From: Deltaproteobacteria bacterium
Lineage (GTDB): Bacteria > Myxococcota_A > Polyangia > JAAYKL01
Assembly: GCA_028713995.1 (NCBI GenBank)
Contig: JAQTNF010000003.1
Coordinates: 2,020-66,019, forward strand
Length of the DNA stretch: 64,000 nt
Direction of reading: 5' to 3'
Part shown: piece after piece, positions 3,358-31,941 of the stretch
Numbering within the stretch: the first letter of the stretch is position 1
How the letters are laid out: each line of letters starts with the position of its first letter
Program-made: the position numbers and the translations under genes
The notes under the pieces: generated by a model
What the model was told of the DNA's origin: nothing
What the model saw: only the letters and a program-made list of their open reading frames with translations
Database searches by the model: none

Positions 3358-3380
3358 GTCAGTTTTCCCGCGCTGGCAAA
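3358..3380. repeat. Palindromic motif GTCAGTTTTCCCGCGCTGGCAAA, copy 1, 7 nt after the stop of 2803..3351
   Basis: 23 of 24 nt identical to 6455..6478. Related to the perfect palindrome at 16466..16483. Confidence 0.7.
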
Positions 3381-3509
3381 GCCGCTGGCACGGTCTAGTA
3401 GCGGGGTTCTTGGGTCATAGTTGGTTTTGGGGGTTATTTGGGTCTAGTCTACAGAATCAACGAATTTCATCAGTTTAGGCTATTATGCCTCTAATAGAAA
3501 GGAGTTTTC

Positions 3510-5222
3510 ATGACTACTTCATACACGTTCGCGCGGTCTTCATCGATAGTTGCTATCGCAATCTGCGCCTGGCCACAGTTGGTTGCCGCACAAGCGTCTC
3601 CCCAAACAGAACAGCCCGTTGAAACTGATCCTGCCCCCTCTACTCCCCCTGCGCAGTCTCCCCCTCCAAGTAATTGTCAACCCCAAGGCCAACCTCTCGG
3701 TGAGTCTGACGAATACGAACTCAAACCTTACAGTTGCGAAGCAATACCTGAATACCAACCGGAGCCGAAGATGGCAATCGAAGCAGCGGTTGTTTCCGCG
3801 ATTGGCGGTTTGGTCGCGAGCCGTGCTGAAAAGGAGCTCATGCAGTGGTTTGTTGATGCAATGCTGAACGACCTATGTGGAGAAGTGAAGGTCAGAAATC
3901 TTCTCCCCAAAGTATGTGCCCTTCACGACGCCATCAACACCATTTCAATTCCGTCGAAAACCGCCCTCGTAGCTGCGTTTCGCGATGACATCGAGCAGTT
4001 GCCTGAACGACTCCTTTTGGATTCAACTTTCTCTGGCGAGGACGGGAAGGCATCAGTAAAAATTTATATACAGGTCTTTGAGGGTATCCGACGTGGTTAT
4101 CCCCCATTGGAGATCGTAGCTGGCTTGGGGAGCGTCGAGAAATTGAAAAAACAAAAATGCGACTCGGTAAACACTGAATGCGTATTACTTTTAGTTGGTC
4201 TCACAGCGCAGGCATATTTAGACGTTGGAGGTAACGAGAGCGGGTATAATAAGGATAACTTTAAAAGGGTCTTAGAGAATAAGCTCGATATCGTTAAAGA
4301 CAAAGATATCAGAAACAGATTGGATGAAACGAACTCCCCCAATAACAATCTATTCGATGAACTGTCGCACGCCTTAGAGAGTGCCAAGATCGCCACATCG
4401 GCTTCCCAGGAAACGATGACAGCCGAAAGGTTTTCTCATCGCGCGTTGATAGTTCTGACCTTGATGGAGGATATAACGGAGAGTTATCAAAAAAGTAATC
4501 TGGTGAACCCTAGGGCACGCAACTATCTAATATACTCGGCAACGGCATTGAGCGCCGCCAAGGCGAAGCATTACTCTGATGCACTCGTCCCCATGCTCCA
4601 GATTATTAGTGAGGCCGAGAAGGGGAAGCCCTCTCAAGGCGCTGTCGTCAAATTGCTTCAGCGGTATTTACCGCTTGCCGTTGATATAGCTGCCGCCGAG
4701 ACGAGTGCAGACATACAGACCGCTCTTGAAGATGCTGCACAACCCGTAGGAGGATGGCGCCTGAAAAAGACGCGTCCTATAATATCGATTGGTGCACTTG
4801 TTGGGGTGTCTCCTGAATGGGAGTTCGGATTCAAAGACGATAGCCTTCGACAGACCGGATTTGTCGTAAGTGTGTTCGCGCCTGTGGGTGTTGACCTTTC
4901 ATGGCCGCTGGAAAAGGGTACAGGTGGTTTCTTTATTTCACTCATCGATGTCGGTAGTCTTGTGGGCATTCGTGTTGTAGGTAAGGCTGATGAAGACGTA
5001 AAGAGTGTCGAACAACTCCCGGAACCAGGCTTCGCCCAAGTATTTTCTCCTGGGTTGTATGGGCGTTTTGGTCTTGGACATACTCCTCTGGTTTTCAGTT
5101 TTGGCGGCGCGTATTCACCTGAGCTTCGACGAATGACGTTGCAGACAGGCGCAACAGAGATCGCTAATGTAGTCCGTCTGCAACTGGCGCTTGCTGTAGA
5201 CGTAATGCTTATCCCTTTTTAA
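3510..5222 (+). CDS. Secreted, possibly outer-membrane, protein
   Basis: 570 aa. Shine-Dalgarno aaaggag. N-terminal signal peptide (AIAICAWPQLVAAQA). Pro-rich linker. C-terminus ends ...DVMLIPF, consistent with an OMP beta-signal. About 45 % GC. Confidence 0.55.
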   Translation: MTTSYTFARSSSIVAIAICAWPQLVAAQASPQTEQPVETDPAPSTPPAQSPPPSNCQPQGQPLGESDEYELKPYSCEAIPEYQPEPKMAIEAAVVSAIGGLVASRAEKELMQWFVDAMLNDLCGEVKVRNLLPKVCALHDAINTISIPSKTALVAAFRDDIEQLPERLLLDSTFSGEDGKASVKIYIQVFEGIRRGYPPLEIVAGLGSVEKLKKQKCDSVNTECVLLLVGLTAQAYLDVGGNESGYNKDNFKRVLENKLDIVKDKDIRNRLDETNSPNNNLFDELSHALESAKIATSASQETMTAERFSHRALIVLTLMEDITESYQKSNLVNPRARNYLIYSATALSAAKAKHYSDALVPMLQIISEAEKGKPSQGAVVKLLQRYLPLAVDIAAAETSADIQTALEDAAQPVGGWRLKKTRPIISIGALVGVSPEWEFGFKDDSLRQTGFVVSVFAPVGVDLSWPLEKGTGGFFISLIDVGSLVGIRVVGKADEDVKSVEQLPEPGFAQVFSPGLYGRFGLGHTPLVFSFGGAYSPELRRMTLQTGATEIANVVRLQLALAVDVMLIPF

Positions 5223-5237
5223 AAAGGAGAACATCAC

Positions 5238-6380
5238 ATGAGAATCATGAGCGCGGTGCTGGTTGGGTCAGCATGGCTGGCAACAATGTCGACGTGTTCC
5301 GAACTGTCATCCCAATCAGTTACGCCACCTCGCCCCAAGCTCTCGTCATTTTCAACAACCGAGCTTATTGCCTATCTCGGTGGCGACATGGAGAAGTCGC
5401 GTCCAAAGAAGCCCCAACCTGTTGCACTTGTGGACAATAAAAGTAATGCCGATGTGGTCGCGTTAAATAAGCTTCGACTGTTTCGCGATCAAGAAATTAT
5501 CGATGAACTCCAGTCTCGTACGAAATCTATTTTTGGCGATGACGATAGGAAGGAGGTTGGGAATTCTATAGAAACACTGAGGTCACTCGCGAATTCTGTC
5601 ACCGCATTCATCGAAGCCGACAAAATAGTTCCTCAGGACGACGGTTGGTCCACGATTGAAACCGAACCGCTTACTGATTGGGTTAAACGACAAAAGTCCT
5701 ACCCTCTGTGTATGGAGGAACGATTTCGAACCCAGCCCAGAGCGGCATTTTGCTCTGGTGTTCTTTTGGGTACAAAGCTAGTACTCACGGCCGCCCATTG
5801 TGTGCAGCCGGATAATGGTGGTGAGAATAACGCCATCCGAATCAGCGACGCGCGTATCGTCTTCAACTTCAAAGATTTCCAGAAACCTCCGGTCCGTGTC
5901 CCTTCTAGCGATGTATACCGTGGTGTAGGATTCATTGGTAGGCGACACGAAGGAATTTTCGACTGGGCGCTCATTTTACTTGATAGAGATGTCGTCGGCC
6001 ACAGCCCAGCGCCACTAGCACCTGTTACTGGACCCAAGGAAAGCGACCCTGTACTCGTCATTGGGCATCCTTTAGGCTTACCGGAAAAAGTTGCAGGTGG
6101 TGGACGTGTAGTGCGAGTCGGAGCTAACTCGTTCCTGGCAACCGTTGACACATTCATGGGAAACTCAGGTTCTCCAATATATTCTGACGAGGGGAAAGTC
6201 GTGGGCATGTTTATCAGTGGCGACCAAGATTTCGTTCAAGATCGTCAAAGAAACTGCATGCGTTCAAGAAGATGGAATGATGACGGCTTAAAAGGCGAGG
6301 TTTGCATGAGAACAACCCCTTTCTACGACGAATTAGTACCTTTGCCTCCGACACCAGCGATAGTGGGCGGTCAACCCTGA
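5238..6380 (+). CDS. Secreted trypsin-like (S1 family, V8/glutamyl-endopeptidase-like) serine protease
   Basis: 380 aa. Shine-Dalgarno aaaggag. Signal peptide. LTAAHCV His motif. GNSGSPIY Ser motif. Lies 15 nt after the preceding gene, so likely an operon. Confidence 0.7.
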   Translation: MRIMSAVLVGSAWLATMSTCSELSSQSVTPPRPKLSSFSTTELIAYLGGDMEKSRPKKPQPVALVDNKSNADVVALNKLRLFRDQEIIDELQSRTKSIFGDDDRKEVGNSIETLRSLANSVTAFIEADKIVPQDDGWSTIETEPLTDWVKRQKSYPLCMEERFRTQPRAAFCSGVLLGTKLVLTAAHCVQPDNGGENNAIRISDARIVFNFKDFQKPPVRVPSSDVYRGVGFIGRRHEGIFDWALILLDRDVVGHSPAPLAPVTGPKESDPVLVIGHPLGLPEKVAGGGRVVRVGANSFLATVDTFMGNSGSPIYSDEGKVVGMFISGDQDFVQDRQRNCMRSRRWNDDGLKGEVCMRTTPFYDELVPLPPTPAIVGGQP

Positions 6381-6454
6381 TAAAAAACCCTGATAACAAC
6401 AACACCTCACGATTTCAGACGGAAAGCACGCCTGGGTTTGACTTCTTAGAAGGG

Positions 6455-6478
6455 GTCAGTTTTCCCGCGCTGGAAAAC
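6455..6478. repeat. Palindromic motif GTCAGTTTTCCCGCGCTGGAAAAC, copy 2, 75 nt after the stop of 5238..6380
   Basis: Near-identical to 3358..3380. Confidence 0.7.
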
Positions 6479-6504
6479 TCGCGGCGGTCCTGTCTGCTGG
6501 GGGC

Positions 6505-7179
6505 TTGCTGCACTTCTCGGAAGTCGCTGTTCATGTGCTCTACGGGGCGGAAACACGGCCTCCACTCTGCCATCGGCCCGCTCCGGCAAAAGGATTTGCC
6601 CCCGACGTGCGTCGGAGTTCCTCCTTGCGCCTTCGCTCTCCGGCACGACGGCGATTCACGGCCGTATATTTCCTAACCCCGAAAACCATGAACCGCCCTG
6701 ATACAATACCAGCTCCACAGCCCATCGAGCAGCCAACCATACCCAAAGTGCTCAACGGCAGGATCAACGACTGCGGTGTCATTATCCCGCGCAACGACAC
6801 GATGGACATCATCTACAACGGTGCCGAAGACAGCCTGCTCTTCCGGCAGTTCAGAAGCGGTAACGTTACCGCGGAGATCGATCTGGCCGAGTTCGACGAC
6901 GGGTTGGTAGCCTGTTCTGCCTCTGTGAACACTCCGTACAGCGGATGCTCATCTCCAATGACGCCGGACGACCGGGCAGACCGAGAGACCGCGATAGCGG
7001 ATGTGACAAGCAGGATAATCCGCTCCCTCGAAAACACCATCGCCGACACCAGCTCCGGCAAGCCGAAAACGGTGAACGACAACTGCCGCGCGCTCATCGG
7101 ACAGCTTCGCGCCTGGAACTTCCGCTCCAGCGGCATGACCAGAGAAGAAGAACCACCTGCACTACCACTCGCCTTCTGA
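6505..7179 (+). CDS. Hypothetical protein carrying an intact conserved N-terminal module (...AVYFLTPKTMN) fused to a unique GC-rich body
   Basis: 224 aa in a single frame. The first roughly 62 aa are homologous, at DNA and protein level, to 2591..2835 and to the YFLTPKQM segment at 19660..19690. Confidence 0.5.
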   Translation: MLHFSEVAVHVLYGAETRPPLCHRPAPAKGFAPDVRRSSSLRLRSPARRRFTAVYFLTPKTMNRPDTIPAPQPIEQPTIPKVLNGRINDCGVIIPRNDTMDIIYNGAEDSLLFRQFRSGNVTAEIDLAEFDDGLVACSASVNTPYSGCSSPMTPDDRADRETAIADVTSRIIRSLENTIADTSSGKPKTVNDNCRALIGQLRAWNFRSSGMTREEEPPALPLAF

Positions 7180-7297
7180 GTCGGTCAGGAAACTGGCCCA
7201 GATCACGGAATTGAGGATCTGTTATTTTCACTTCACCTTCCCCCATCGCCTGGCGTTATGGTAATATACAAACGTTAATATCCTTACATCTCACCTT

Positions 7298-9463
7298 ATG
7301 AAAACAAACACAAAAGGCTTCACCCTCGTGGAGCTGATAGTCGTCATCGTCATCATCGGCATCCTGAGCGGGGCGGCGTACATCGGTATACAGAAAGTGA
7401 AGTCCAAAAGCATGAACGACAAGGTCCTCGACGACCTCGTCGCCATCTCGAACGCGCTCGAGCAGTACAAGCGCGACCATTTCAACAAGTACCCTGTGCC
7501 GCAAACGAGAGACGAGAATCCCGACGCGAACATGAACATCAACTGCTTCTACGCGGACGCGACCTACGCGCACGACTGCGCCGCGGCGTCTTTCCGGCAG
7601 AGTATGATCGACAACAACCTCCTGACCAAACGGTACCTGCAAGAGGTTCCTACCGACCCGCGGACAGGCTCGCGCTATGTCTACGGCGTCTCAAACGACG
7701 GCTGGTACTTCCAGGTGGCGGGTATCGTCGAGGAATCGGATGGTACATGGAAAGCAATGTCCGTCAGCAATCTTGGCAAAGGGTTTCCTTTGCCAAGCAT
7801 CATCCGAGCTTACAACGGCCCGAACTTCGTCGTGGACGGCGGCACGAACCTGCCCTACAGCCCCGACTATCTTGCCATCTCGGCGGCGCTCGAGAACGTC
7901 AACGGAATGGTCCTTGTGAACGGCGGATCTAAAGCGGCCCGTGAAACACTGTATCCGGGCGATACGGTGGAGACCGGCGATGACGGGACCGTGGACATCT
8001 ACTTCTCAGATGGCTCGATCTCGCGTCTCGACCCTGGAAGCGAGTTCACAATCCTCGGCGACGGTGAAAGCACGGTCCAGGAAAACGACAAGGACAACAT
8101 CATCACCAGGATACGGCTCAAGCTCTTCTCCGGAAAGATCTGGAGCAAGGTCGCGAGGCTTGCGTCGAAGTCCGAGTTCAGCGTGGAGACGACCTCGGCG
8201 ATCGCGGGAGTCCGCGGCACCGAGTTCGGCGTATGGGCAGATGGCAACATCATCCTTGTCCGCTCCGGCTCCGTGTGGGTCGGCGAAGAGACAGAGGCGA
8301 ACACGGTCTCGGCAACAGACGTTCCCATGAAGGCCGTGATGACCGCCACCGGACCAACCGCCGTGGAAACCGTCACTGAGCCTGACCTCCTCGAGTACAT
8401 CGAAGAGCATAATAAAAGCACTGGGTTCTCCGCCGGCCTTTCGGAGATGGACGTGCCGTTCATCGTCGGCGCGCTTTTCAGGCCGTCCGGCACTTACGAT
8501 GTCTACGTCTCGTTCGGCGCCCCCTACATCGAGGACATCTACAGCTTCATCGACGGGTTCGAGATCTACAGCGGCGCGTGGACCGAGAAATTCAAGGTGA
8601 TGAAAGAAGGCTGGGAAGACAATCCGACCCACGAGGTGACAGGTGACGACATCACATACGACACGGTGAACAAAGTGTACGTATTCCCTCTCGACTACAC
8701 GGAGAGTGGCTCTGTCTGGGACGCGGAGAAGGGAAGGCCCGAGACCATCCTTGTCCGCGCGTTCGTCGAAGACGACGCCGGCGAGCGGACATACTCCGCC
8801 CTCTCCTGGCCGCCCATCGGATTTCTCGCGGTGCCTCCTGCCGCGGATCAACCGTGGAGCTATGCCGACATCTACAAGGAATTCGCCAGCCTCGAAAGCC
8901 TGGTGCCGCCTACTACAGAGTGCACGTTCGGAACTGAAGGAACCCAACCTTGCACGATCGCGCACGGCACAGGAACACAGAAGCGCGTGTGCACCGCCGA
9001 TGGCGTTTGGCCGACGAGTTGGAGCACATGCGGTCTTACCGGTTGTGACGCAGGCTATGAGCTCGTCGGCGGAACCTGCGAGCCCGCCGGTCCGACACTA
9101 GAGGGTCTCTGCAACGCCGGAACAGACACATGGTTCGACGCCACGAACGACGAGTGCTGGGTCATGGGCGCAGCGGGAGCGACCTGCACGGACGCCTGTA
9201 ACGCCGTCGACGGCTCCGCCGTCAACATTGGCATCGACTGCGACACGGGCTCGTGGAACGACACGAGCACGTGCTCGATCTGCGGGCAGTTCGGGGTAAC
9301 CGTGGCAGGGTGCATAAGCGGAACATCGGATACCAGTCCTAAGTATCAGCTCAGTGGTTTATATGCCAATAATTGCTTTTACAGAAGCTCGGGGGTATCG
9401 AGTTGCGCCGCCACAATCCCGACGACTTTAAAAAGAATCTGCAAGTGCATACTAATGCCGTGA
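7298..9463 (+). CDS. Fusion protein: type II secretion GspG-like pseudopilin N-terminal domain, a FecR-like domain, and a Cys-rich C-terminal region
   Basis: 721 aa. GFTLVELIVVIVIIGILSGAA prepilin cleavage/methylation motif. DLVAISNALEQYKRDHFNKYP is GspG-like. GDTVETGDDGTVDIYFSDGSISRLDPGSEF is FecR-like. Many Cys in the last 200 aa. Confidence 0.6.
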   Translation: MKTNTKGFTLVELIVVIVIIGILSGAAYIGIQKVKSKSMNDKVLDDLVAISNALEQYKRDHFNKYPVPQTRDENPDANMNINCFYADATYAHDCAAASFRQSMIDNNLLTKRYLQEVPTDPRTGSRYVYGVSNDGWYFQVAGIVEESDGTWKAMSVSNLGKGFPLPSIIRAYNGPNFVVDGGTNLPYSPDYLAISAALENVNGMVLVNGGSKAARETLYPGDTVETGDDGTVDIYFSDGSISRLDPGSEFTILGDGESTVQENDKDNIITRIRLKLFSGKIWSKVARLASKSEFSVETTSAIAGVRGTEFGVWADGNIILVRSGSVWVGEETEANTVSATDVPMKAVMTATGPTAVETVTEPDLLEYIEEHNKSTGFSAGLSEMDVPFIVGALFRPSGTYDVYVSFGAPYIEDIYSFIDGFEIYSGAWTEKFKVMKEGWEDNPTHEVTGDDITYDTVNKVYVFPLDYTESGSVWDAEKGRPETILVRAFVEDDAGERTYSALSWPPIGFLAVPPAADQPWSYADIYKEFASLESLVPPTTECTFGTEGTQPCTIAHGTGTQKRVCTADGVWPTSWSTCGLTGCDAGYELVGGTCEPAGPTLEGLCNAGTDTWFDATNDECWVMGAAGATCTDACNAVDGSAVNIGIDCDTGSWNDTSTCSICGQFGVTVAGCISGTSDTSPKYQLSGLYANNCFYRSSGVSSCAATIPTTLKRICKCILMP

Positions 9464-9556
9464 GCCCCCTTCATTCCTGGGTGTTACCGTAAAAGTGTGT
9501 ACCTCGGTGAACCGGCGTTTATTAATGATTTAAGATATGTAACTTCGCAGGTATTG

Positions 9557-10210
9557 TCACTTTGCATACGGCTGAAAATACCCGTCCTTCAAGCCTTGCT
9601 CATACCATCTGATGAAATCCCTATCCATGGAACCTTTTGAAATGCCGTATTTCTGTTTAACATCTGCCAGTTCTTTTTCCGTCAGCCATTCCAGCTCGAG
9701 TCTGAGGTTTTCAACCAGATCCTGCCTCTCCTGCTCAGCCTTCTCTTCCGGCGTCAGTTCCGGTTCGGGGATGTAGGGCGAATACGACCAGTTGATAGTG
9801 GGGTCGTCATGGTTGCCCTTTGACTTCTGGAACTGTCCGCAGTCCGCTTTGACCATCTTCACGAGTTCGGGGAAGGTGGTGTTATAGACGGTAGTGCCAC
9901 CTGTGTATGTAATTTGCCAATTCGAGGTGAATGGTAATCGATTTTCTATCTGGTAATATAATAGTTCATAATCCCTATTCCCATCTCCCAATATGTCTTC
10001 TTCTGTTATCAGCGCGTACTCAGGGGTTAGCACTCCAAAATGGCACGACTCAATATCATATTGAATCAATGTTTCCTTGTACCAATCGCTAGTATTTATT
10101 TCGGACTCGCTTTCAACTAAAGAAACGTGTTTCCCCTTGTAATAAAATATAGTCGACGCCAGCAACGAGAGTACGATCAATGCATATGTCATCAGTTTGT
10201 GTTTTTTCAT
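9557..10210 (-). CDS. Small secreted hypothetical protein
   Basis: 217 aa. Signal peptide (LIVLSLLASTIFYY). About 38 % GC. Lies 22 nt downstream of the lipase gene. Confidence 0.45.
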   Translation of the reverse strand: MKKHKLMTYALIVLSLLASTIFYYKGKHVSLVESESEINTSDWYKETLIQYDIESCHFGVLTPEYALITEEDILGDGNRDYELLYYQIENRLPFTSNWQITYTGGTTVYNTTFPELVKMVKADCGQFQKSKGNHDDPTINWSYSPYIPEPELTPEEKAEQERQDLVENLRLELEWLTEKELADVKQKYGISKGSMDRDFIRWYEQGLKDGYFQPYAK

Positions 10211-10231
10211 AAATAAACATTAAAAATATAG

Positions 10232-12712
10232 CTATTGTATCTGTACGGGGTTATCTTTCTTCTTGTTGGATGTTCCTTTTAAGGCCACCTTCACCCACCC
10301 CTGAACCGCCTCCAAGTTCCACGTCGTGTTCTCCAGAACAACATTCACGTACTTGTTGGTTCTGCCGAAATTGGATTTGTACGTGGCCGTGATCCTGATC
10401 GTCTTCGGAGCAGTCTGCACAGCCGTGATGTCCGAGAATCCGCCGTGTATGAAGACCTTGTCTCCGTCGTTCTCGTTTGCCTTGAAGTCCTCGACGTACA
10501 GGCTGTTCGGCTGGATTTTGTGGTAGAAACGGTCCTCTCCTCCGCCTCCGAACATCTCGCAGTCTTTTCCCTCGCTGCATTCAAGGATATTGGACTGCGT
10601 GTTGCCGTACAGGGTGTATCTTGGAGATCCGCTGGTTTTCAGTACCTTGAGGTATTTGATTTTGTAGGGGTTATCCTGTTCTGTGTAGATTATACCATTG
10701 GCTCCATTTTCGATAACAGCAAATGGAGCCGATCCGCCTTTCCGTGAAGCGAGATTCTGCGGGGAAAGGACATTGCCGGAAAACGGGTTGCTTATGATCG
10801 TGTCGTAGACCTTGTGGACATTGGCGTGATAGGTCACAAATCTGTCTTTTATCTTTTCAAGGCCGAATTCGCAGATATATGGAAGATATTTAAGTGCGGC
10901 ATCAACCGGTTCGCATGCTTTCTCTTTAAGATTTTCCACAAAGACTTCCACAAGTTTACCGTTCAGGATCTTGTACATCCTTACACCGCGTAGTCTTCCT
11001 TTTATGCTCCTGCCGACGGCTTTCTCGATTGTGTACGTGGCGCCTTGGTCCACAACGTATTCGAGCCCCTCGGCGACGGCCTCATCGATCACGAAATCAA
11101 CGTATTTATGAAGCTCTTCGAACAAAGGGAAATCGGGGTTGCCGCTGTAGTCGATAAGATACCCCTCGCGGCAGGTCTTCATCAGCGCCTCGCTTCCGGA
11201 CCAGCTCGCGTCCGCGACAAGGCAGGCTCCGCTTCCGCCAAAGCTGGCAAAACTGGTGTTGTCGAAATCTGTCTTGTAGGCAACCGGGGAAGCGGCGGGG
11301 TCGAGCGCGATGAGGTTTATTCCTCCGAGTTTTTCCGACAGCTTCTTCGTCAGCAGGCCTCCGAGCGAAAACCCGATGACAGTCGTCTTGTCCTTGTTGA
11401 TCCCCCACTTCTTCAGGGCATCGGCGATGACATCCGTTACGGGGCCGATCCATTTGGAGGCCTGAAGCGGGGTGGCGGTCTTCGCGATTGCGGACCAGTC
11501 CAACAGAAGTACCTGCGCTTTGGGATCGTTTATCAGGATATTTTCGGCCATCTGCTTTGTCCAGACCGCCCAGTTATTGTCGCCGGTAGCCTGTCCGTAA
11601 GGTGAATTCCAACCGTGAGAGATGATGTATGTATTATTGCCATTCGATTTCGCTGAATCTACAGGGCCTCCAGCCTTTATATAGAATTTCTGATCCAGTT
11701 TGTCCGACAGAAGCATGTTGGGAGCGATAGGTAGCCCGACCATTGTGCCGTTCGTATATACCTTGACCCAGTTCCCGCCTTTCCCCGTGACACTGTACTC
11801 GCCGGTAATGCTGAATGGCTTCTTCTCTTCGGTCCTTCTTGCAGAGGCTTTCCTTTTGACCTCCTTTGCGATGTCCTCCCCGCTTATGCCCCTTTTGTCG
11901 CACCAGTCCATTACAACCACATATTCGAGGTACGGCTTCTCATTGCCGTTGTCGTCTCTCGATGCCCAGACGCATGTTTCAAGTGCGGTCAGTCCATCGC
12001 CATGGGCTTTATTCATGTGTTCCAATATCTTGTCAGCCCTTGTACTGGAGATGCCCTGGGTGATTTTATCTGCTTTATTAAAAATCGCCGCACGTGAAAT
12101 GAAATCAGACAAGCCCGCGCTGGCAACCAAATAGCTGCCCGTATTCACTTTCTCTTTACATCCGGATGACGTCGGAATCCCTTTGCAGGGATTGGTGTAA
12201 CCGGCCTGTGAATCCCAACTGGAGGAAGGAGTGGAGGTCGCTGACGTTTCGGATGCACCGTCCAATTCGCCCACCGGCACGTAATAAGTCTTCCCGTTAT
12301 AGGTGACTTTCTGCCAGAGGGACACGCCGTTATATGAATCGCCGTAGACGGGTTCGCCTGTGGCGATAACACCGCTAGCCAGGCTGACGGTACATTCGGA
12401 ACGGGAAGCGTCTGCGCAAAGGACTGTAGTGCCGACAGTCTGCCCGTCCAGGCTCGGGTAGGCATCCTGCCGCAGGGATTCGTCATAGTCGCTCTCGGTA
12501 TCGTATGATGAGGCATCTCCTTCTGTGGCTGACGGGGGCAGCTTCTGGAATTCCGTTTCGGTGTTCTTATATGCAACTCCGTCGATTACTATCTCGTCGT
12601 TGCCAATGTATCCCTGTTCGGCATGCGCGAAACAGAAGCCGGCAAGTAAAACCAGGACAGCAGATAAAAATGTAATGAGGCGGGTGGCAACCTTCTTCAG
12701 CGAGGTCTTCAT
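10232..12712 (-). CDS. Secreted lipase of the pancreatic-lipase fold family (alpha/beta hydrolase)
   Basis: 826 aa. Signal peptide. The segment HGWNS...LLLDWSAIA...VIGFSLGGLL...LDPAASP matches the GxSxG / GLDPAGP arrangement of the PL family. Confidence 0.55.
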   Translation of the reverse strand: MKTSLKKVATRLITFLSAVLVLLAGFCFAHAEQGYIGNDEIVIDGVAYKNTETEFQKLPPSATEGDASSYDTESDYDESLRQDAYPSLDGQTVGTTVLCADASRSECTVSLASGVIATGEPVYGDSYNGVSLWQKVTYNGKTYYVPVGELDGASETSATSTPSSSWDSQAGYTNPCKGIPTSSGCKEKVNTGSYLVASAGLSDFISRAAIFNKADKITQGISSTRADKILEHMNKAHGDGLTALETCVWASRDDNGNEKPYLEYVVVMDWCDKRGISGEDIAKEVKRKASARRTEEKKPFSITGEYSVTGKGGNWVKVYTNGTMVGLPIAPNMLLSDKLDQKFYIKAGGPVDSAKSNGNNTYIISHGWNSPYGQATGDNNWAVWTKQMAENILINDPKAQVLLLDWSAIAKTATPLQASKWIGPVTDVIADALKKWGINKDKTTVIGFSLGGLLTKKLSEKLGGINLIALDPAASPVAYKTDFDNTSFASFGGSGACLVADASWSGSEALMKTCREGYLIDYSGNPDFPLFEELHKYVDFVIDEAVAEGLEYVVDQGATYTIEKAVGRSIKGRLRGVRMYKILNGKLVEVFVENLKEKACEPVDAALKYLPYICEFGLEKIKDRFVTYHANVHKVYDTIISNPFSGNVLSPQNLASRKGGSAPFAVIENGANGIIYTEQDNPYKIKYLKVLKTSGSPRYTLYGNTQSNILECSEGKDCEMFGGGGEDRFYHKIQPNSLYVEDFKANENDGDKVFIHGGFSDITAVQTAPKTIRITATYKSNFGRTNKYVNVVLENTTWNLEAVQGWVKVALKGTSNKKKDNPVQIQ

Positions 12713-12794
12713 GTGGAAGGTTGATTAACGGTAACATATAATAAATATTTCTATATAAAATGTCAAGCTTAATTAACTCATATTAAATCTCGTC

Positions 12795-12838
12795 ATGTTC
12801 AAGAACCCCGCTGTCCGTTTAAAGTGGACGCGGGGTTC
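12795..12838. terminator. Possible terminator hairpin between two minus-strand genes
   Basis: GAACCCCGCTGTCC-gtttaaagt-GGACGCGGGGTTC forms a roughly 12-bp stem just downstream (minus sense) of 12861..14852. T-rich flank is present on the plus side only. Confidence 0.3.
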
Positions 12839-12860
12839 TATGAGGCTTTTCTCCTTTCTT

Positions 12861-14852
12861 TCAGTAGGTCTCGACGTCGAGGGTGTCGGACGCGCAGCCG
12901 GTGACGTTGCACACCTCGATCTTGAGCGTGATGGGGCCGTCGCACACCCCGTCTGTGTAGCTGATGTTCATCGGTGAGCCGGTGACATCCCCGCTTTCCG
13001 GATCGAACGTCCCGTCGACACCGCAGTTCAGGACCTGTGACGCCGTGAACGTGTCCGCGTCAGTCGAAGTGAAGATGAGCGGATAGGTCTCTCCGATCAT
13101 GCACCATCCGGGAGCAGAACCACCCGAGCAGTCGAGCTCGACGATGGTGATGGTGGGGAGCGGCGGCACTTCGCAGTTGTCGCCGGTCCATCCGTCAGTG
13201 CAGTTGCACGAGCCCGAGGGCTCGGTGCAGGAGCCGTGATCGCCGCAGTCGACGTCGGGAGGGTTGGCACATCCCGTGAGGGCGTCACACGTCTCGGTAC
13301 CGTTACAGGCCAGGCCGTCGTCGCAGGTGAGCAGTGTTCCGGACTGGCAGCCGAGGACGGAGTCACAGGTCTCGATGCCGTTGCACACGTCGTTGTCGTC
13401 GCAGACAAGAGGAGTGCCGTTCTGGCAGCCGGCGACAGGATCGCAGGTTTCCAGTCCGTTGCACGCGTCGTTGTCATCACAGACGAGAGAATCGACGTGA
13501 ACGCAGTCGCCGGTTCCGGAGTCGCAGACTTCAGAGCCGTTGCACACGTTTCCGTCGTCGGGGCAGGACACTCCGTAGCAGAGATCGGCAACACAGGTCG
13601 GGTAACCGGTGTAACCGGCAGCGCACGAGGTGCAGTTGGTGGCGGGGTCGTAGCCGGTGTCGCAGGAGCACGAGCCGAAGGGCTCGGTACAATCGCCGTA
13701 GTCGCCGCAGTCGATGTCGGCAGGATTGATGCAACCCGTTTCGGGGATGCAGGTTTCCAGACCGTTGCAGGCAAGACCGTCGTCACACGTGAGCGGGTCG
13801 TAGTGCTTGCACTCGCCGTCGGAAGGATCGCAGTTCTCGTTGCCGTTGCAGAGGTCGCCGTCATCTTCGCAGACAACGCTTTCGCAAAGGTCGACCGTGA
13901 GGTCGATGGACTTCGCGTCCTCCGCATGGTGGCGGTAGGCGGGATCGATGTTGATGTCAGAGACTGAAAAGGTGAGATCGTGCTGACCGTTGAAGAGCGG
14001 CAGGCGGAACCGGTTGGGTTCGCTTTGCGGGATCAGGCAGATGGCGGTAGAGCCGTCTTTGATCTCGAAAGTAACCCAGGTCGGGAAAGCCGTTTGCTCT
14101 TCATCAGCGAGAGTGACCTCGATGAGGACTCCGTCCCCGTTCACGTCGTACCCGTTGGTATCGCCGGGAACGAAAGAGACGGAGAACCCGCCGAATGGTC
14201 GGTTCAGGACGGCGTAGGCTGAGAAGGTGTCTGTCAGGTACATGGCTCCCATGCTGTCGACAACCGTCGGCTGGACGATCTCGAAGTGAGGCGTGGAAGC
14301 CTCGGAGAGCCATTTCATGACAGAGCCGAACCATGAGGGGAAGGTAAGCGTGACGTCGAGCTTGGGCTCGATCTCGTTGTAGCCGCTGTCCCCGTAGGGG
14401 TTGGCGGCCGAGATGGCCTTGTACACGACGCCGTCAGCGCTGAGGATCTTGTTGTCGGGATTCTGGGCGTCGCACAGGGCGCCGTCCTCGTCCTCGACAA
14501 GAGCGTCGGCCGGGAAGTTGGCGCGGGCGATGATCGCGATGACGCATTCATCGAACGTGCCTTCCGTGTAAACGGCCTTGAGACCGTGAAGGGCCGACGC
14601 TTCGTCGGTGACCTCGAGGGTCTGCGCGCCGTCTCCTGGGCAGAAGCACTTTTCGGCGAGGAACGTGCCGAACTCGAAAGACGTGTTCTGGCAGTTCACC
14701 TCGTCGGTGTCGCTGTCGGAGTCCGAGTCGGAATCCGAGTCTGTGTCCGTGTCGGTGTTGCCACCGTCGGACGAGTCAGAGTCATTGCCGTCGCAGGCGA
14801 CGGCGAGAAGCGCCGCGAAAAGGGCGCACGAGAGCGTGAAGAGAATGCGCAT
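12861..14852 (-). CDS. Lipoprotein with Myxococcus cysteine-rich repeats and an Asp-Ser/Thr acidic linker
   Basis: 663 aa. Signal and lipobox LLAVAC. DTDTDSDSDSDSDSDTDE linker. Tandem CDDGLACNG(L/T)ETC repeats. About 60 % GC. Confidence 0.7.
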   Translation of the reverse strand: MRILFTLSCALFAALLAVACDGNDSDSSDGGNTDTDTDSDSDSDSDSDTDEVNCQNTSFEFGTFLAEKCFCPGDGAQTLEVTDEASALHGLKAVYTEGTFDECVIAIIARANFPADALVEDEDGALCDAQNPDNKILSADGVVYKAISAANPYGDSGYNEIEPKLDVTLTFPSWFGSVMKWLSEASTPHFEIVQPTVVDSMGAMYLTDTFSAYAVLNRPFGGFSVSFVPGDTNGYDVNGDGVLIEVTLADEEQTAFPTWVTFEIKDGSTAICLIPQSEPNRFRLPLFNGQHDLTFSVSDINIDPAYRHHAEDAKSIDLTVDLCESVVCEDDGDLCNGNENCDPSDGECKHYDPLTCDDGLACNGLETCIPETGCINPADIDCGDYGDCTEPFGSCSCDTGYDPATNCTSCAAGYTGYPTCVADLCYGVSCPDDGNVCNGSEVCDSGTGDCVHVDSLVCDDNDACNGLETCDPVAGCQNGTPLVCDDNDVCNGIETCDSVLGCQSGTLLTCDDGLACNGTETCDALTGCANPPDVDCGDHGSCTEPSGSCNCTDGWTGDNCEVPPLPTITIVELDCSGGSAPGWCMIGETYPLIFTSTDADTFTASQVLNCGVDGTFDPESGDVTGSPMNISYTDGVCDGPITLKIEVCNVTGCASDTLDVETY

Positions 14853-15709
14853 GGCGCAGCTCCTTTCTCCAGGTCCCGAGGGGACCGGTTTTTACGGGTT
14901 TGATTTCTGCCGGGCGGACCGGTGGCGATATGGCTCCGCTTCCATATTTCAGGAAAGGAGTCGCCCTCGATCTGCCCGTCAGGAATTGCCCGCCGGAGTC
15001 AGGGAGCTCGTTGCTTGTAGGACTGGTTCGGAGCGCTCATGGTTGCTGCCTTTCCACGCCCCTAAAAAAAAAGGGCGTGATGGACCCGCGCTCCGCGGAA
15101 GCCCATCCGCCCTCCCGAACGAACGGAGGTAGTCACTCCTCCGCCTTTCGGCAGCGGTGGTTGCGGAGCGCGTTTGTCCTGTGAAGCCGTCCCCGTCACG
15201 GGTGACAAATCCGTCAAGTCCGATGAACATCGGACAGGATCAGGCTTCACCATAAGGATGGTGTCGGTTAGGGCTTCGGGTCAAGAGAAACCAGAGCATA
15301 GAAACTGAAAGGATAATTAAAGCCTCATTGTTAAGGAGCAGCCGTTCCTCACTCCCATTGGGACGAGGACACGGCAAAGCGATGCCGGGCGTTTTTCACG
15401 CACGGTTCAACCGACTTGCTGTCGCAGGAACGGCCGATGGTGCAGTACCCGGCAGGAAACATAAAAACCGTTATTAAAGTGAAGTGTATTTATTTTATAC
15501 TATTTATTTGGATTTGTCAATTCAAGTGTATTTAATTATAGCATATTCTCACTACTTATTTAATCTGATTTTCCTGGGCGTGCCCCCCGAAGGACATCGG
15601 GGGTCGGGCTCTACGCTACTGCTTGCAACGCTGCGATCCCTCACGCGGAATACCTTGACATCTTCGTCCGCTCAGATAACCCTTCTAAAAACAAACAGGA
15701 GGTCCGATT

Positions 15710-16465
15710 ATGACGAAAGAAAAGAAGACGACTGCCCTGGCCAAGGTTGCTCCCGCCCGTGAATCGGCCGAGGAGGTCGCCCCGCCCGACCTCCCGGGCA
15801 TCGGGAACGTGGAGAAAAGCCTTCTCAACACGGCGGTAGGCGAGATCAACCGGCTGTATGCGGCCAAGAGCGTCGAGACGGCCTGCGCCGTGGGCGAGTA
15901 CATCCTCAAGACCTTCTTCAAGGGCGACATGGACAACTTCAACGAGTGGGGAAACAAACACGAGACCTTCGGAGAACTGCTCAGCATGGCGCAGGGGGAG
16001 GACAGCCCCCTGCACATCTCGTCCTCCGGGCTCTGGTACTCGGTGAGGATCCTCGAGCAGGTGAAAGCGCTACCCCAGGAAATCGCCATGGCCCTTCCCG
16101 GCACCCATCACAGGATGCTCGTGCCGGTGAAGGACGAGAAGAAAAAACTACAGCTCGCGAAGATGGCTGTGAGCAAGGGCTTGACCTCGCGAGCTTTCCA
16201 GGAGGAGGTCAGGGCAGTCCGTGAGGGAGAGATGCGGGAAGGGAACTCGCCCGGCCGCCCACCTCTCCCAGTCTGGGCGAAGGCCCTGAAGAAGTCGGTC
16301 AAGGCAATCAAGGACCTCACGGTGCAGGGCGTTACCAAGGACTCCTTCGGCAACTACAGCGCCGACGACGCCAATGAACTCCTCTCCGAGGTCAACGACG
16401 CCATTGACAAGATGAAGAAACTCCAGGAGAAAATCAGAACGCACGTCGAGAAGATGGCCGAGTAA
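15710..16465 (+). CDS. ParB/KorB-like DNA-binding protein (putative), orphan
   Basis: 251 aa. ALPGTHHRMLVPV ... GLTSRAFQEEV resembles the ParB LSxGHARALL...LSVRELE region. No parA partner nearby. Confidence 0.35.
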   Translation: MTKEKKTTALAKVAPARESAEEVAPPDLPGIGNVEKSLLNTAVGEINRLYAAKSVETACAVGEYILKTFFKGDMDNFNEWGNKHETFGELLSMAQGEDSPLHISSSGLWYSVRILEQVKALPQEIAMALPGTHHRMLVPVKDEKKKLQLAKMAVSKGLTSRAFQEEVRAVREGEMREGNSPGRPPLPVWAKALKKSVKAIKDLTVQGVTKDSFGNYSADDANELLSEVNDAIDKMKKLQEKIRTHVEKMAE

Positions 16466-16483
16466 TTTTCCAGCGCTGGAAAA
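16466..16483. repeat. Perfect 18-bp palindrome TTTTCCAGCGCTGGAAAA, immediately after the stop of 15710..16465
   Basis: Third member of the palindrome family (3358, 6455). Confidence 0.7.
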
Positions 16484-16605
16484 CTTCAACCTTTCTGTCC
16501 ACCAGCCGGAGCTCCACCATGGTCTGTGAGAGCTGATCTCCCAGCAGAACTCGTAGATGGACTTCGTCCCTGCCCGGCTCCCGTTTGTCCTGCCGATTTC
16601 GGATC

Positions 16606-18261
16606 TCACTCTGGCCGGTGGTCACACGATATTCCCGACTGATAATGCGCGTCTACGGTTATGTAGCCACTTTCCAATGGAATCAAACGCAGTGAGCGAA
16701 TCGTTTGTCCGTCTTTTAGTATTTCTTGAGACTCTTCGTTATTCACCGATATTCCCGGAGAACACCATCCCTCCTTGGGCTCGAATTCAATTTGATACTC
16801 ACCTCTTGGGACGAAAAGGGTTACTCCGCATTTGTTTTCGTGCTTTGAAAAAGTTCCTTCCCTGTGGTTATTACCGAAGACCTGTCGAAGCCGGTATTTG
16901 ATCCCCACGGGATTGGACCTTATGAATAGCTCAGCCACTTCGGGAGATGCGCCTATCGGAAGATACCGCCCTATGATGCTTTCCCCTTCTGACGGATCCA
17001 ACAGATCTTCCAGCCCTTCCGGCGGCGTTTCCAGGTTAAAATAGATGGGGGCTGGTGTGACAAAACCATCCACATCGTCGAATACGACCTTGTATCCGAT
17101 TCCAGGAAATGGTGCACTAGGAAGAACATGCTGAGATTCACATAACCCGTTCTTCACCTCTCTGCTCGGGCCGTCGCCCATTGGATTTCCATCAGCTGTA
17201 CGTCCAACAGTCCAACCCCCGTCTGGAATATTGGTTCTCACGACAACTGAATTCATAAGGGATTGGCCAACGCTCCTTTCAGAAACCTTTTCAGGAAGCT
17301 GCGCGTTAGGAGCGGGCGCTAGGCTCACGATATTATCTTCCTTTTGAAGACGCTCCTCACCATTTGCCACTGTTTGAGAAGGTAGGTTCGTACTACTTTT
17401 TAAGGCACTTTTAGAGTGGTCACTAAAATCAGGCGATTCGCTGTGTCTGTCTAATCGGACAGTAGCAGATTCTTTTCCCCGATCCCTTGGGGGGATGTAT
17501 CTATCTGATTGGATAGCAGCAGATTCTTCTCCCCGATCCCTTTGGGGGACTGGACTCTGCTCAGATACCAATGTCTTCACTCCTATAATAACGATGGCTA
17601 CAGTAACTGCAGTTACCCCCAGGGCAGCCACGTGTGAGAATTTTAAGGACAGCCATTTGTACGGGGGAAGAATAGCTCTAAACAGTTGTCTAAATTCAAT
17701 TCTTTTTTTACTATAAAATAGATTCAGAAGGGTTTCATCGTCCTCTTGAATCCCTTCTTCCTGTAGGGCCGCCTTGATTTTCGGAATTGCGTTTCTAATA
17801 CCTTGGGCGTAATTGGACTTACTCCACAGATGTTCCATTGCCTCCTGTGAGGCGTTGCTTTTTTTACCTGTTGGTTTTGCTAGTTCAAAAGGGCTACTGA
17901 TGGCTTCGCATGTCGAACTCAACTCGCTTGCTAGAATATAAATAGCCCAGCCATTTGTTTTCGTTTTCTTTTTCAGAACTCGTTCAAAATGTCTTAACGC
18001 GCTGTCTTCATTCCCCGTGGTATTACCCATTATTGGAATACGCTGAGGCTGTTTTAATGTTTTGTCTTGGCGCTTTCGGCCGTATCCCATTGCAAGAGCT
18101 AGTTTTTCTATTTTATTACTGGGTCTTATTGCTTTGTAGTTTGCAATGATTTCCCTGAATCTCTCCTCGGGCATACACCATTCCCAGGAATCGTCTTTTT
18201 TTAAACGACTAGCCGCCTCTTTCGCAAACTCATCATAATTCTTCTCGTCAATGGGTTTCAT
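16606..18261 (-). CDS. Single-pass membrane protein of unknown function, with a cytoplasmic N-terminal domain and an extracytoplasmic repeat and Cys domain
   Basis: 551 aa. TM segment VAALGVTAVTVAIVIIGV. RDRGEESA/RDRGKESA repeats. About 40 % GC. Confidence 0.5.
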   Translation of the reverse strand: MKPIDEKNYDEFAKEAASRLKKDDSWEWCMPEERFREIIANYKAIRPSNKIEKLALAMGYGRKRQDKTLKQPQRIPIMGNTTGNEDSALRHFERVLKKKTKTNGWAIYILASELSSTCEAISSPFELAKPTGKKSNASQEAMEHLWSKSNYAQGIRNAIPKIKAALQEEGIQEDDETLLNLFYSKKRIEFRQLFRAILPPYKWLSLKFSHVAALGVTAVTVAIVIIGVKTLVSEQSPVPQRDRGEESAAIQSDRYIPPRDRGKESATVRLDRHSESPDFSDHSKSALKSSTNLPSQTVANGEERLQKEDNIVSLAPAPNAQLPEKVSERSVGQSLMNSVVVRTNIPDGGWTVGRTADGNPMGDGPSREVKNGLCESQHVLPSAPFPGIGYKVVFDDVDGFVTPAPIYFNLETPPEGLEDLLDPSEGESIIGRYLPIGASPEVAELFIRSNPVGIKYRLRQVFGNNHREGTFSKHENKCGVTLFVPRGEYQIEFEPKEGWCSPGISVNNEESQEILKDGQTIRSLRLIPLESGYITVDAHYQSGISCDHRPE

Positions 18262-18490
18262 TTCCCCTCCGTAGTCTGATTTGCTCCTCGAATCTGGAAC
18301 CGTATCTTTCCGTAAAAACCTTTCGCATCAATTCACAGAAATCACTTCGAAAGGCTTCGGTCTCGCCCCGGTCTTCCCAGATAGACGCAAGGCTGGTTCT
18401 GCATTTGTTAACCAAGTTCTCGATGTGGCGTTCCACCTCCGCTTCGATAGGGAGGCCACTATCGGGTAATAGGTTAAATTTGTTCTCCAT
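18248..18490 (-). CDS. Small hypothetical protein translationally coupled to the downstream membrane protein
   Basis: 80 aa. 14-nt overlap with 16606..18261. Confidence 0.4.
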   Translation of the reverse strand: MENKFNLLPDSGLPIEAEVERHIENLVNKCRTSLASIWEDRGETEAFRSDFCELMRKVFTERYGSRFEEQIRLRRGNETH

Positions 18491-20300: not shown

Positions 20301-20448
20301 CAAGAATGGGAAAAAAGAGAAGAATGAGATATTAGTAGAACACAAATTGTTTGAAGATTATCCGTTAAAAAGTCGACACCGAAGCCTGCGCACGGGGAAC
20401 TGCCGCGCTTCCGGTCCCATTCCGACAAACAGTATTTATCAACAAATT

Positions 20449-21336
20449 ATGAACATCCTCGAGTTGCACCAACGGTTCCGGCGGTACTGCGCCATCGAAC
20501 AGGGGTTGTCCCCGCGCACGCTCCGCGCCATGGAATCCGCCGTGCGGACGTTCGTCCGTAGAACCGGCGCAATAGAGATGTCCGATGTCACCCTCGATCT
20601 CGTGCAGGGATTTTTTTACGAGGGGCGGGAAAAGCACCAGTGGGGGTTCTGGTGTTTTTCGAACTACCACAAGTACCTGAAAAAGTTCTTCGGGTGGTGC
20701 GTCTCGCAGGGGCACATGGCCGAAAACCCGCTCCTCGCCATCGGTCTTCCGGCCAGGCCACAGAAATTGCCGCGGCGCCTGTCGTTCGAGGAGGCGCAGC
20801 GCATCCTGTACTCGGCGTTCAACATCACCTGGCAGTACGAGTTCGAGCGGACGCGTAACCACGCCATCATCGCGATGCTTCTGTACACGGGACTGCGGGC
20901 ACAGGAACTCCTCAACCTCGAGGTCACTGACCTCGACCTTCGGTCCGGGTCTCTTCTGGTGCGCAGGGGCAAGGGAGCGAAGGACAGGTACGTGCCACTG
21001 CACTTCAAGCTCAGGTACGTCCTCAAACGCTACCTCGGCGACCGTCAGCGGCTCCGGAAGGAGAGCCCATTCCTGTTCACGGGCGTTAGGTCAGGGAAAC
21101 CGCTTGGGTACAAGGATCTGAGACGTGTGTGCCGCCGCGTCTCGAAAGAGACGCATGTCAGCTTCACGCCCCACCAACTCCGGCACACGTTCGCGAGCGT
21201 GTCGATCGATCAGGGCATGGGGCTCACGCAGGTGAAGGAGATCCTCGGGCACTCCAACATCGCTTCCACAATGATCTACGTGAGGCTGTCAACGCGAAGT
21301 CTGCGCGACGGATTAAATAAGATTGATTTATTTTAA
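20449..21336 (+). CDS. Tyrosine recombinase, XerC/XerD-like
   Basis: LSPRTLRAMESAVRTF N-terminal core-binding motif. RHTFAS...LGHSNIASTMIYVRL C-terminal catalytic motifs. ORF in the track starts at 20347; ATG at 20449 is preferred. Confidence 0.8.
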   Translation: MNILELHQRFRRYCAIEQGLSPRTLRAMESAVRTFVRRTGAIEMSDVTLDLVQGFFYEGREKHQWGFWCFSNYHKYLKKFFGWCVSQGHMAENPLLAIGLPARPQKLPRRLSFEEAQRILYSAFNITWQYEFERTRNHAIIAMLLYTGLRAQELLNLEVTDLDLRSGSLLVRRGKGAKDRYVPLHFKLRYVLKRYLGDRQRLRKESPFLFTGVRSGKPLGYKDLRRVCRRVSKETHVSFTPHQLRHTFASVSIDQGMGLTQVKEILGHSNIASTMIYVRLSTRSLRDGLNKIDLF

Positions 21337-21457
21337 ATCGGAGGTGTAGCCTGATATCAGGTTATAGGTCGTCGGAAAGAAGACCACTGACAGCAATCGA
21401 CTCTCGAAAAACGGCTTGAACAAGCCGTTAAGTCGAAATCGAAAAACGCGGTACCAC

Positions 21458-21502
21458 CTCTTAAGCTATTGGTCCTGGGTTCGAGTCCCAGAGCACCCAC
21501 CA
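21458..21502 (+). mobile_element. 3' fragment of a tRNA gene (T-arm, acceptor 3' strand and CCA only), a putative att site remnant
   Basis: cctgggttcgagtcccagagcacccacca. No complementary 5' acceptor strand (gggtgct) within 150 nt upstream. Confidence 0.55.
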
Positions 21503-21584
21503 AAATGGCTTACGGAAGCCGAAAAACGCGCGTCAGGGGTCGAGCCGAGGGTCTATAGCCGCAGGCTATTAACCCCCGGCACTT

Positions 21585-30274: not shown

Positions 30275-30583
30275 ATGACACACGAAACCAGTTTCGAGTC
30301 AGAGGGAGTCGCGGTGCGAGGGGAGGGGGCGGCGCGTGAGCGCGATTTCGCCGAGCGCGACGACGGTGACGGTCTCGTGCGCCCCGACGAGCCGCCGCCG
30401 GTGGCGACGGTCGCCGAAATCGCGCGCTTCCTTCGCGTGCGCCCGAACCTCGTGTACGCCATGTACAGACGCGGAGAAATCCCAGGCGGGCAGCGCCTCG
30501 GTCGCACCATCCGCTTTTCCACCGGGGTCGTCGTCGAGTGGCTGAAGAGCGGCGAGCAACGGCGCACAAGGCGCGGGCACTAG
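30275..30583 (+). CDS. xis: Excisionase / MerR-AlpA-type HTH protein
   Basis: VATVAEIARFLRVRPNLVYAMYRRGEIPGGQRLGRTIRFSTGVVVEWL. Overlaps the integrase start. Confidence 0.6.
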   Translation: MTHETSFESEGVAVRGEGAARERDFAERDDGDGLVRPDEPPPVATVAEIARFLRVRPNLVYAMYRRGEIPGGQRLGRTIRFSTGVVVEWLKSGEQRRTRRGH

Positions 30584-30651
30584 AGTTCGATGTTCACGTC
30601 CTTGCCGAACGTGATATCTTGGCCTGGGGCGAGTCTCCGTCTCGCACGCGA

Positions 30652-31864: not shown

Positions 31865-31941
<77 letters not shown>

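Follow-up and report, generated by a model that had tools for sequence, protein, structure and literature searches.

The closest described counterparts of the locus reported here are the protein-plus-palindrome pairs ParB-parS and Noc-NBS, in which parS reads TGTTTCAC-GTGAAACA and the Noc-binding site (NBS) reads TATTTCCC-GGGAAATA (PMC7383237), and KorB of the IncP plasmid RK2, whose operator OB (oligonucleotide GGGATATTTTAGCGGCTAAAAGGA) is a palindrome with a T-run, a GC core and an A-run (PMC11790492). We analyzed a 64-kb stretch of a Deltaproteobacteria bacterium assembly (GCA_028713995.1, contig JAQTNF010000003.1, positions 2,020 to 66,019; hereafter the window) in which a short palindrome recurs three times just past stop codons, once directly behind the gene of a 251-amino-acid (aa) protein with a predicted ParB/Noc-type helix-turn-helix (HTH) domain. 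This locus resembles Noc-NBS and ParB-parS in the HTH fold, in a palindrome with T-rich and A-rich outer halves, in the half-site GTTTTCC, which is similar to TATTTCCC of NBS and TGTTTCAC of parS, and in the position of the site beside the gene. From comparisons among related loci and a structural model, we favor the reading that the palindrome, with the consensus AGTTTTCC-NGCGCN-GGAAAACT across these loci, is the cognate dimer-binding site of the 251-aa ParB-HTH-only protein and probably acts at module boundaries, as an operator or a roadblock. The novelty of such a system would be modest: it would be a variant of the ParB/Noc/KorB protein-plus-palindrome theme, new in using the DNA-binding domain alone, in the wider spacing of its half-sites and in its location on an integrative element.

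The palindrome TTTTCC[A/C]GCGCTGG[A/C]AAA was found at 3363-3380, 6460-6477 and 16466-16483 of the window (copies 1, 2 and 3), confirming the three positions reported by an earlier model reading of the DNA letters (the sequence-only reading). When the whole 64 kb was searched with TTTTCCMGCGCTGGMAAA at up to three mismatches, the same three places and no others were recovered (0.19 expected), a count that none of 100 shuffles equaled, and the 20-mer GTTTTCCNGCGCNGGAAAAC returned the identical three sites (0.05 expected). Counted to the limits of its symmetry, the palindrome is 22 bp long, with the halves AGTTTTCCAGC and GCTGGAAAACT. Copy 3, which directly adjoins the stop of the ParB-HTH gene, has an 18-bp core that is perfectly palindromic, as had been claimed. 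The distances of 1-75 nt from stop codons also held, with copy 1 beginning 7 nt past the stop (3351) of the open reading frame (ORF) 2842-3351, copy 2 beginning 75 nt past the stop (6380) of a trypsin-like protease gene, and copy 3 beginning 1 nt past the stop at 16465. The genes on either side of copies 1 and 2 are co-directional, with ORF 3510-5222 starting 130 nt after copy 1 and a conserved leader following copy 2; those around copy 3 are convergent. For two of the three sites, the next co-directional gene is 130-210 bp downstream. In direct orientation and 3097 bp apart, copies 1 and 2 share the centre CGCGCT and an asymmetric left extension, GTCAG, giving a common stretch of 28 nt at 89% identity. 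Their previously stated identity of 23 in 24 needs correction: GTCAGTTTTCCCGCGCTGG(C/A)AAA is 23 nt long with 22 identical positions, and 22 of 24 positions agree between 3358-3381 and 6455-6478. A 13-nt inverted repeat at 6440-6452/6513-6525 (GACTTCTTAGAAG / CTTCTCGGAAGTC, 85% complementary) encloses copy 2 and the next 35 nt, and may be due to chance.

Short, palindromic and intergenic sequences such as these could be copies of a generic repeat, either a repetitive extragenic palindromic (REP) element, as the sequence-only reading had suggested, or a miniature inverted-repeat transposable element, or could have recurred by chance. We find this hardly credible. All three copies are inside a mobile element and none is present in the 32 kb of host DNA that follows it, and the shuffles exclude chance. 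The search for further copies that had been proposed yielded, among the matches listed, hits at the chance level only: an 18-mer scan of 185,579 species genomes gave at least 119 singletons spread over all phyla, at the estimated chance level and many of them in conserved coding sequence, with several distinct sites within one stretch in no genome among the matches listed, and a 20-mer metagenome scan gave seven matches, close to a rough chance estimate. No homologue of the 251-aa protein was encoded at any of these loci when the protein family was compared by tblastn with all carriers of the 18-mer or 20-mer, and the motif therefore seems specific to elements that carry this gene family. Megablast and tblastn searches of plasmid and phage collections returned no matches, motif and protein scans of viral contigs returned none either, and a literature search on the motif produced nothing relevant, with one unrelated eukaryotic cDNA paper.

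The strongest evidence for a link between gene and site came from related loci. Our comparison set comprised every close homologue of the 251-aa protein (48-60% identity) found on a usable metagenome contig, and the palindrome was located 0-10 nt after the stop codon in all seven loci (the window, L130, L131, L132, L133, L138 and L139/L140; stop contexts in Table 1); in this gene-site unit, the stop codon touches the outermost bases of the site or overlaps them. Gene and site are passed on together as a unit. Across the six aligned loci, 16 of the 18 core positions were invariant, while the 60-nt flanks on each side had near-random identity. The only variable core positions were the two that flank GCGC, where symmetry was not kept, and the arms stayed the same, without any compensatory substitution, in loci whose proteins differ by 40-50%. 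Given that the arms are invariant, that covariation is lacking and that the variation beside GCGC is asymmetric, the constraint is that of sequence-specific recognition by a protein and not that of an RNA stem. The related elements carry a single copy each, and what borders the site on its right varies from one to another: the leader, the 3' end of a recombinase gene or other sequence.

This pattern also bears on the possibility that the palindromes work at the RNA level, as intrinsic terminators or as hairpins that stabilize mRNA 3' ends, to which they are similar in being short palindromes just past stop codons. Nine of nine sites (three in the window and six in relatives) are just 3' of a stop codon, and a stem of 6-7 bp can be drawn; however, in addition to the absence of covariation in the arms, a U-run precedes the stem and an A-run follows it whichever strand is read, which is the reverse of a terminator. 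A terminator scan called none of the three window sites, fold energy was no better than that of shuffles in three of four strand/site tests (z = -0.5, +0.3 and -0.1), and the best fold of copy 1 did not use the palindrome. An RNA role is thus very improbable, and we rejected the intrinsic terminator or RNA hairpin on account of the missing 3' U-tract, the weak stem and the lack of covariation; the same features, together with conservation at the sequence level and the lack of dispersal in genomes, distinguish these sites from both terminators and REP elements. The sequence-only reading had likewise judged the hairpin weak as a terminator and had preferred a dimeric protein-binding site, which we consider the best reading in view of the conservation of the palindrome after the stop of the ParB-HTH gene in seven of seven loci and of the ParB/Noc-type domain of the protein.

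The window protein alone, searched against Pfam, NCBIfam and PHROG, gave no match over threshold. Its AlphaFold 2 (AF2) model (mean predicted local distance difference test score, pLDDT, 83.8) was all-alpha, with no beta strands and with residues 1-21 disordered. When this model was compared with the PDB using Foldseek, Noc, ParB or Spo0J proteins or their DNA-binding domains accounted for 23 of the 27 top matches, and the Noc-NBS complex 6y93 ranked first. A family profile searched against PDB sequences also placed Noc and ParB among its best matches (E 0.05-0.44), and in hhalign the segment HISSSGLWYSVRILEQVKALP...LPGTHHRML (S-x-S-x-L-x3-V-R-I-L...LP...THHR) paired with the HTH region of the chromosomal ParB encoded in the window. 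The Pfam model PF17762 (HTH_ParB) matched 23 of 40 wider-family members, with a best E of 5e-5, and the window protein itself at E 0.004, below the cut-off. These results indicate that the 251-aa protein carries a ParB/Noc-type HTH DNA-binding domain, as modeled, and its long C-terminal helices (residues 188-250) probably serve in dimerization. The earlier description of this neighbor as ParB-like therefore applies to the DNA-binding domain, which was recovered by Foldseek, profile, hhalign and HTH_ParB comparisons, but not beyond it, since no other ParB domain was present: the N-terminal ParB/Srx CTP-binding domain with its GxxRxxA box was absent, with no ParB_N match in Pfam and an all-helical model. 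A profile search at E <=0.001 collected 1,401 clusters at 50% identity, a large family in which no named or characterized member was found in the literature and databases searched.

A ParB-type HTH, a parS- and NBS-like half-site, several copies within 13 kb and a site directly downstream of the gene, as parS often is after parB, would also be expected of a centromere, that is, a parS-like nucleation site for segregating or positioning the excised element and not for controlling transcription. This is distinctly unlikely. Apart from the missing CTPase and ParA-interaction domain, no ParA/CbiA/AAA_31 match was obtained with Pfam among the submitted ORFs of at least 150 aa in 1-31.8 kb of the window, nor in L130-L133; the related elements have a single copy of the site; and the 16-bp parS was not found in the window at up to two mismatches. 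With neither a CTP-binding N-domain in the protein nor a ParA partner for it, we infer a repressor or roadblock and not a partition centromere.

We therefore return to the site as an operator or roadblock. A dimer of the 251-aa protein would place one HTH on each TTTTCC/GGAAAA half-site, for which the helix SASGLWYSVRILEQ is a candidate for docking on TTTTCC. It would be this protein, and not another, that occupies the site and acts as a simple repressor or roadblock gating transcription across module boundaries, with a logic similar to that of KorB and its operators. Like KorB, it would be a ParB-family HTH protein encoded on a mobile element, with a short T-run/GC-core/A-run palindrome at several operon boundaries or promoters. 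However, KorB has an N-terminal CTPase domain, works as a CTP-dependent sliding clamp, is partnered by KorA and also acts as the ParB of IncC/ParA. No counterpart of these features was found here (no KorA-like gene was recognized), and the present system has three sites in the window and one in its relatives. Noc-NBS and ParB-parS differ in a similar manner, given that the locus described here has no CTPase/ParB N-domain, ParA, membrane-targeting or spreading apparatus, has 4 extra bp between its half-sites (NGCGCN), is encoded on a mobile element and matches these families below their thresholds. Downstream of the palindrome are the conserved leader and a co-directional operon in L130, L131, L138 and at copy 2; copy 1 has a co-directional operon behind it. 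The recurrence of the leader behind the site in these three relatives and at copy 2 indicates that the ancestral order was gene, site, leader and operon, and the extra copies 1 and 2 would bring two more co-directional junctions under the same control, from a 169-aa gene to the genes for the 570-aa protein and the protease, and from the protease gene to the leader with the genes for 163-aa and 721-aa proteins.

Several observations weigh against this interpretation. The matches to ParB and Noc are weak (structural E 7e-3, sequence E 0.05) and cover the DNA-binding domain alone, and the half-sites are 4 bp farther apart than in parS or NBS. A scan for sigma-70-like promoters near copies 1 and 2 and in the leader detected none, so that an operator role is conjectural. 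Copy 3, L132 and L133 keep a perfect site with no co-directional operon downstream. In the distant homologues L134-L137 (~30% identity, on short contigs), no palindrome was present near the stop codon or upstream of the gene, and these loci gave no evidence of co-evolution of site and protein. Finally, synteny breaks exactly at the site and the direct copies bracket a module of low GC content at third codon positions (GC3), both of which are explained more naturally by recombination.

Recombination is the serious alternative, and several observations suit it better than they suit an operator; the sequence-only reading had also named a recombination site and the marking of cassette boundaries. 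The palindrome would be the core of a site-specific recombination site for the tandem Xer-like tyrosine recombinases of the element, perhaps with the ParB-HTH protein as accessory factor, and modules would be inserted, excised or exchanged there as in dif/pdif or integron platforms. Inverted arms of 8-11 bp around the 6-bp centre NGCGCN are compatible with the geometry of Xer/dif-type sites, although the same arm-centre-arm geometry is that of a dimeric HTH site. Copies 1 and 2, in direct orientation and with the same GTCAG extension and centre, bracket exactly a two-gene module with GC3 of 0.47-0.48 against 0.7-0.8 around it, and copy 3 stands at the start of another low-GC3 module (0.42-0.54); with neighbors at 0.7-0.83, these values bear out the compositional differences noted in the sequence-only reading. 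Moreover, the order found in L130, L131 and L138 is circularly permuted in the window, where the leader follows the palindrome at copy 2 and the gene precedes it at copy 3, as expected if a circle recombined at the site, and the changing right flank among relatives would fit as well. The recombinase pair (64% identity) is present in every related contig that is long enough, and in L132 a recombinase gene ends 22 bp from the site. Similarity to Xer/dif, pdif modules and integrative mobile elements exploiting Xer (IMEX) consists of the inverted arms around a 6-bp centre, two tandem Xer-like recombinases and direct copies around a compositionally foreign module.

Against recombination, the link of the site with the ParB-HTH gene is invariant (0-10 nt in seven of seven loci), whereas the recombinase genes are between 22 bp and 4 kb away from it, in an orientation that is not constant. 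Another plausible att site is available to the recombinases: between their genes is a tRNA T-arm/acceptor-like fragment in which compensatory changes are seen from element to element. A second palindrome was found neither where the 551-aa module ends on its far side nor beside the inverted recombinase module. Contigs from two samples read straight through all copies, with no sign of an empty site, a circle junction or another arrangement, and a search for alternative junctions via identical proteins in other assemblies gave the same arrangement only. Excision of the 3.1-kb module would give the junction aatgatctagtGTCAGTTTTCCCGCGCTGGAAAACTCGCGGCGG and the circle the junction cttagaaggGGTCAGTTTTCCCGCGCTGGCAAAGCCGCTGG. 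The symmetric GCGC centre is unusual for directional recombination, and the 570-aa protein of the module is an orphan, with homologues uninformative on module mobility. In contrast to Xer/dif, pdif and IMEX, the site has no dif similarity and is tied to the ParB-HTH gene, with no recombination products seen and a tRNA-like candidate att site in place. We consider a recombination core unlikely on balance. Doubtful to a greater degree is its extension to a cassette-exchange platform, integron- or pdif-like, in which the Xer-like recombinases, guided or regulated by site-bound ParB-HTH-only protein, would capture and shuffle foreign modules at AGTTTTCC-NGCGCN-GGAAAACT, with the 570-aa/protease module as one cassette. 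Integron attC sites are 57-141 bp long with R''-L''/L'-R' boxes (GTTRRRY), and are recombined by an integron-type integrase with an extra domain. By comparison with attC and attI, the site described here is 18-24 bp long and has no GTTRRRY boxes, and the recombinases scored 81-106 bits against integron-integrase models, far below the cut-off of 265.

If the protein-binding reading is true, a recognition site would be defined for a family of about 1,400 clusters at 50% identity, and the ParB DNA-binding module would have been reused alone on integrative mobile elements, with neither the CTP switch nor ParA. As a testable protein-DNA pair, the invariant gene-site unit could become an orthogonal tag or operator for use in synthetic biology, where parS and NBS already have this role. 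In addition, sites at compositional module boundaries would provide a tractable case of insulation versus capture of newly acquired cargo genes.

Table 1. Palindrome copies, proposed binding protein and stop contexts of the gene-site unit, followed by neighboring features (positions refer to the window).
Feature	Position	Strand	Description
Palindrome copy 1	3358..3385	.	GTCAG TTTTCC CGCGCT GGCAAA GCCGC; one right-arm mismatch
Palindrome copy 2	6455..6482	.	GTCAG TTTTCC CGCGCT GGAAAA CTCGC
Palindrome copy 3	16463..16487	.	TAA TTTTCC AGCGCT GGAAAA CTTC
Predicted ParB/Noc-type HTH protein gene, 251 aa	15710..16465	+	AF2 model, Foldseek, profile, hhalign; proposed palindrome binder
Stop context, window			TAA, followed by TTTTCCAGCGCTGGAAAACT
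Stop context, L130			TAG, followed by TTTTTCCTGCGCGGGAAAATC
Stop context, L131			TAG, followed by TTTTCCAGCGCGGGAAAAATC
Stop context, L132			TAG, followed by GTTTTCCAGCGCTGGAAAACA
Stop context, L133			TAA, followed by GTTTTCCTGCGCTGGAAAACC
Stop context, L138			TAG, 10 nt, then TTTTCCCGCGCGGGAAAACT
Stop context, L139/L140			TGA, followed by T TAGTTTTCCAGCGCTGGAAAACTA; perfect 24-bp palindrome
Conserved non-coding leader	6480..6687	+	After the palindrome here and in L130, L131 and L138; ends TAACCCCnAAAACCATG at the start of the next gene
Operon behind leader	6688..9463	+	163-aa protein and 721-aa N_methyl/FecR-domain protein
Low-GC3 two-gene module	3510..6380	+	570-aa orphan and 380-aa trypsin-like protease; palindrome copies 1 and 2 on either side
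Second low-GC3 module	16606..18490	-	551-aa and 80-aa ORFs, directly after copy 3; no family matches
Tandem Xer-like tyrosine recombinases	20347..22484	+	329 aa, 20347-21336; 299 aa, 21585-22484
Element right end	30538..31941	.	413-aa integrase 30538-31779 (+) adjoining tRNA-Asp 31865-31941 (-)

The window is divided into two parts of different composition. From position 1 to ~31,800 it is a mosaic of 44-65% GC, and from ~32 kb on it is mostly host DNA of 64-74% GC with genes for ParB, SMC, pyruvate phosphate dikinase (PPDK) and a sulfatase. The low-GC part is an integrated mobile element beside tRNA-Asp, with its left end outside the window and with host DNA of 65-73% GC past its right end. 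An excisionase-like HTH protein is also encoded at the right end, by the 413-aa integrase and tRNA-Asp, and genes for a Replic_Relax protein and a TraD/VirD4-like protein are located upstream of this integrase and excisionase.

The two low-GC3 modules could represent defense or other cargo. On the module between copies 1 and 2, terminal inverted repeats or transposon-like ends were sought and not found, and neither a remnant nor a paralogue of the ParB-HTH gene was detected upstream of either copy. No useful homologues of the 570-aa protein of the window were found; the 570-aa proteins encoded in L130 and L131 are unrelated to it, and the same length is a coincidence. The trypsin-like protease module (3510-6380) had weak PADLOC matches to LmuA and RT-protease models. 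Within the 551-aa ORF of the second module, a 54-bp unit occurs twice in tandem at 17442-17549 (minus strand) with 85% identity.

The leader that follows copy 2 is ~200 nt long in L130 (8590-8774), L131 (3960-4128) and L138 (1255-1435), and a short version is present at 19662-19692 of the window and at ~5030-5061 of L131. Its 3' end, TGTTTAnTTTyTAACCCCnAAAACCATGAA, precedes unrelated first genes, which encode proteins of 163, 74, 75 and 79 aa and a DPPY-motif N6/N4 methyltransferase. In L130, L131 and L138, the operon after the leader encodes small proteins, an orphan N6/N4 methyltransferase and HU. The leader can fold into a long imperfect hairpin (z = -3.8 on both strands in L130, z = -1.6 in the window), for which RNAalifold gave four pairs with compensatory change, and it could be a structure of the 5' untranslated region or could serve an early or leading region as its single-strand (Frpo-like) promoter. 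In the window, the operon behind it includes the 721-aa protein (7298-9463), which has an N-terminal prepilin-type methylation motif and a FecR domain and is unusual cargo for a mobile element.

The recombinase module is conserved in L130-L132, where it is inverted relative to the ParB-HTH gene as compared with the window, and in these three loci the pair converges on the palindrome (L130 10134-11709, L131 6026-6922, L132 1654-2553). The tRNA T-arm/acceptor-like 3' fragment (...GGTCCTGGGTTCGAGTCCCAGAGCACCCACCA) between the recombinase genes is at 21440-21495 in the window, ~11090-11170 in L130 and ~2560-2610 in L132, a position conserved in the relatives, and its compensatory changes are in the T-stem. 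ARAGORN and Rfam searches of this fragment gave no tRNA call and weak T-arm matches only. It is probably attP-like, or an att remnant of a tRNA-targeting integrase.

Elsewhere in the element, the 663-aa ORF at 12861-14852 (minus strand) has several Cys-rich repeats of ~26 aa, with a DNA periodicity of 78 to 81 bp and EGF/teneurin-like Pfam matches, and Logan assemblies break within it. The distant homologues L134-L137 are on high-GC contigs, where a convergent gene, possibly for a histidine kinase, in each case follows within 0-3 nt and has a 3' end conserved at the DNA level; this is another conserved neighborhood, and it contains no palindrome. In L133 (1618-1788), genes for tRNA-Arg and tRNA-Pro are ~650 bp from the ParB-HTH gene and its palindrome, with their 3' ends pointing toward the ParB-HTH gene, and this gene-site unit may be at the very end of a tRNA-integrated element.

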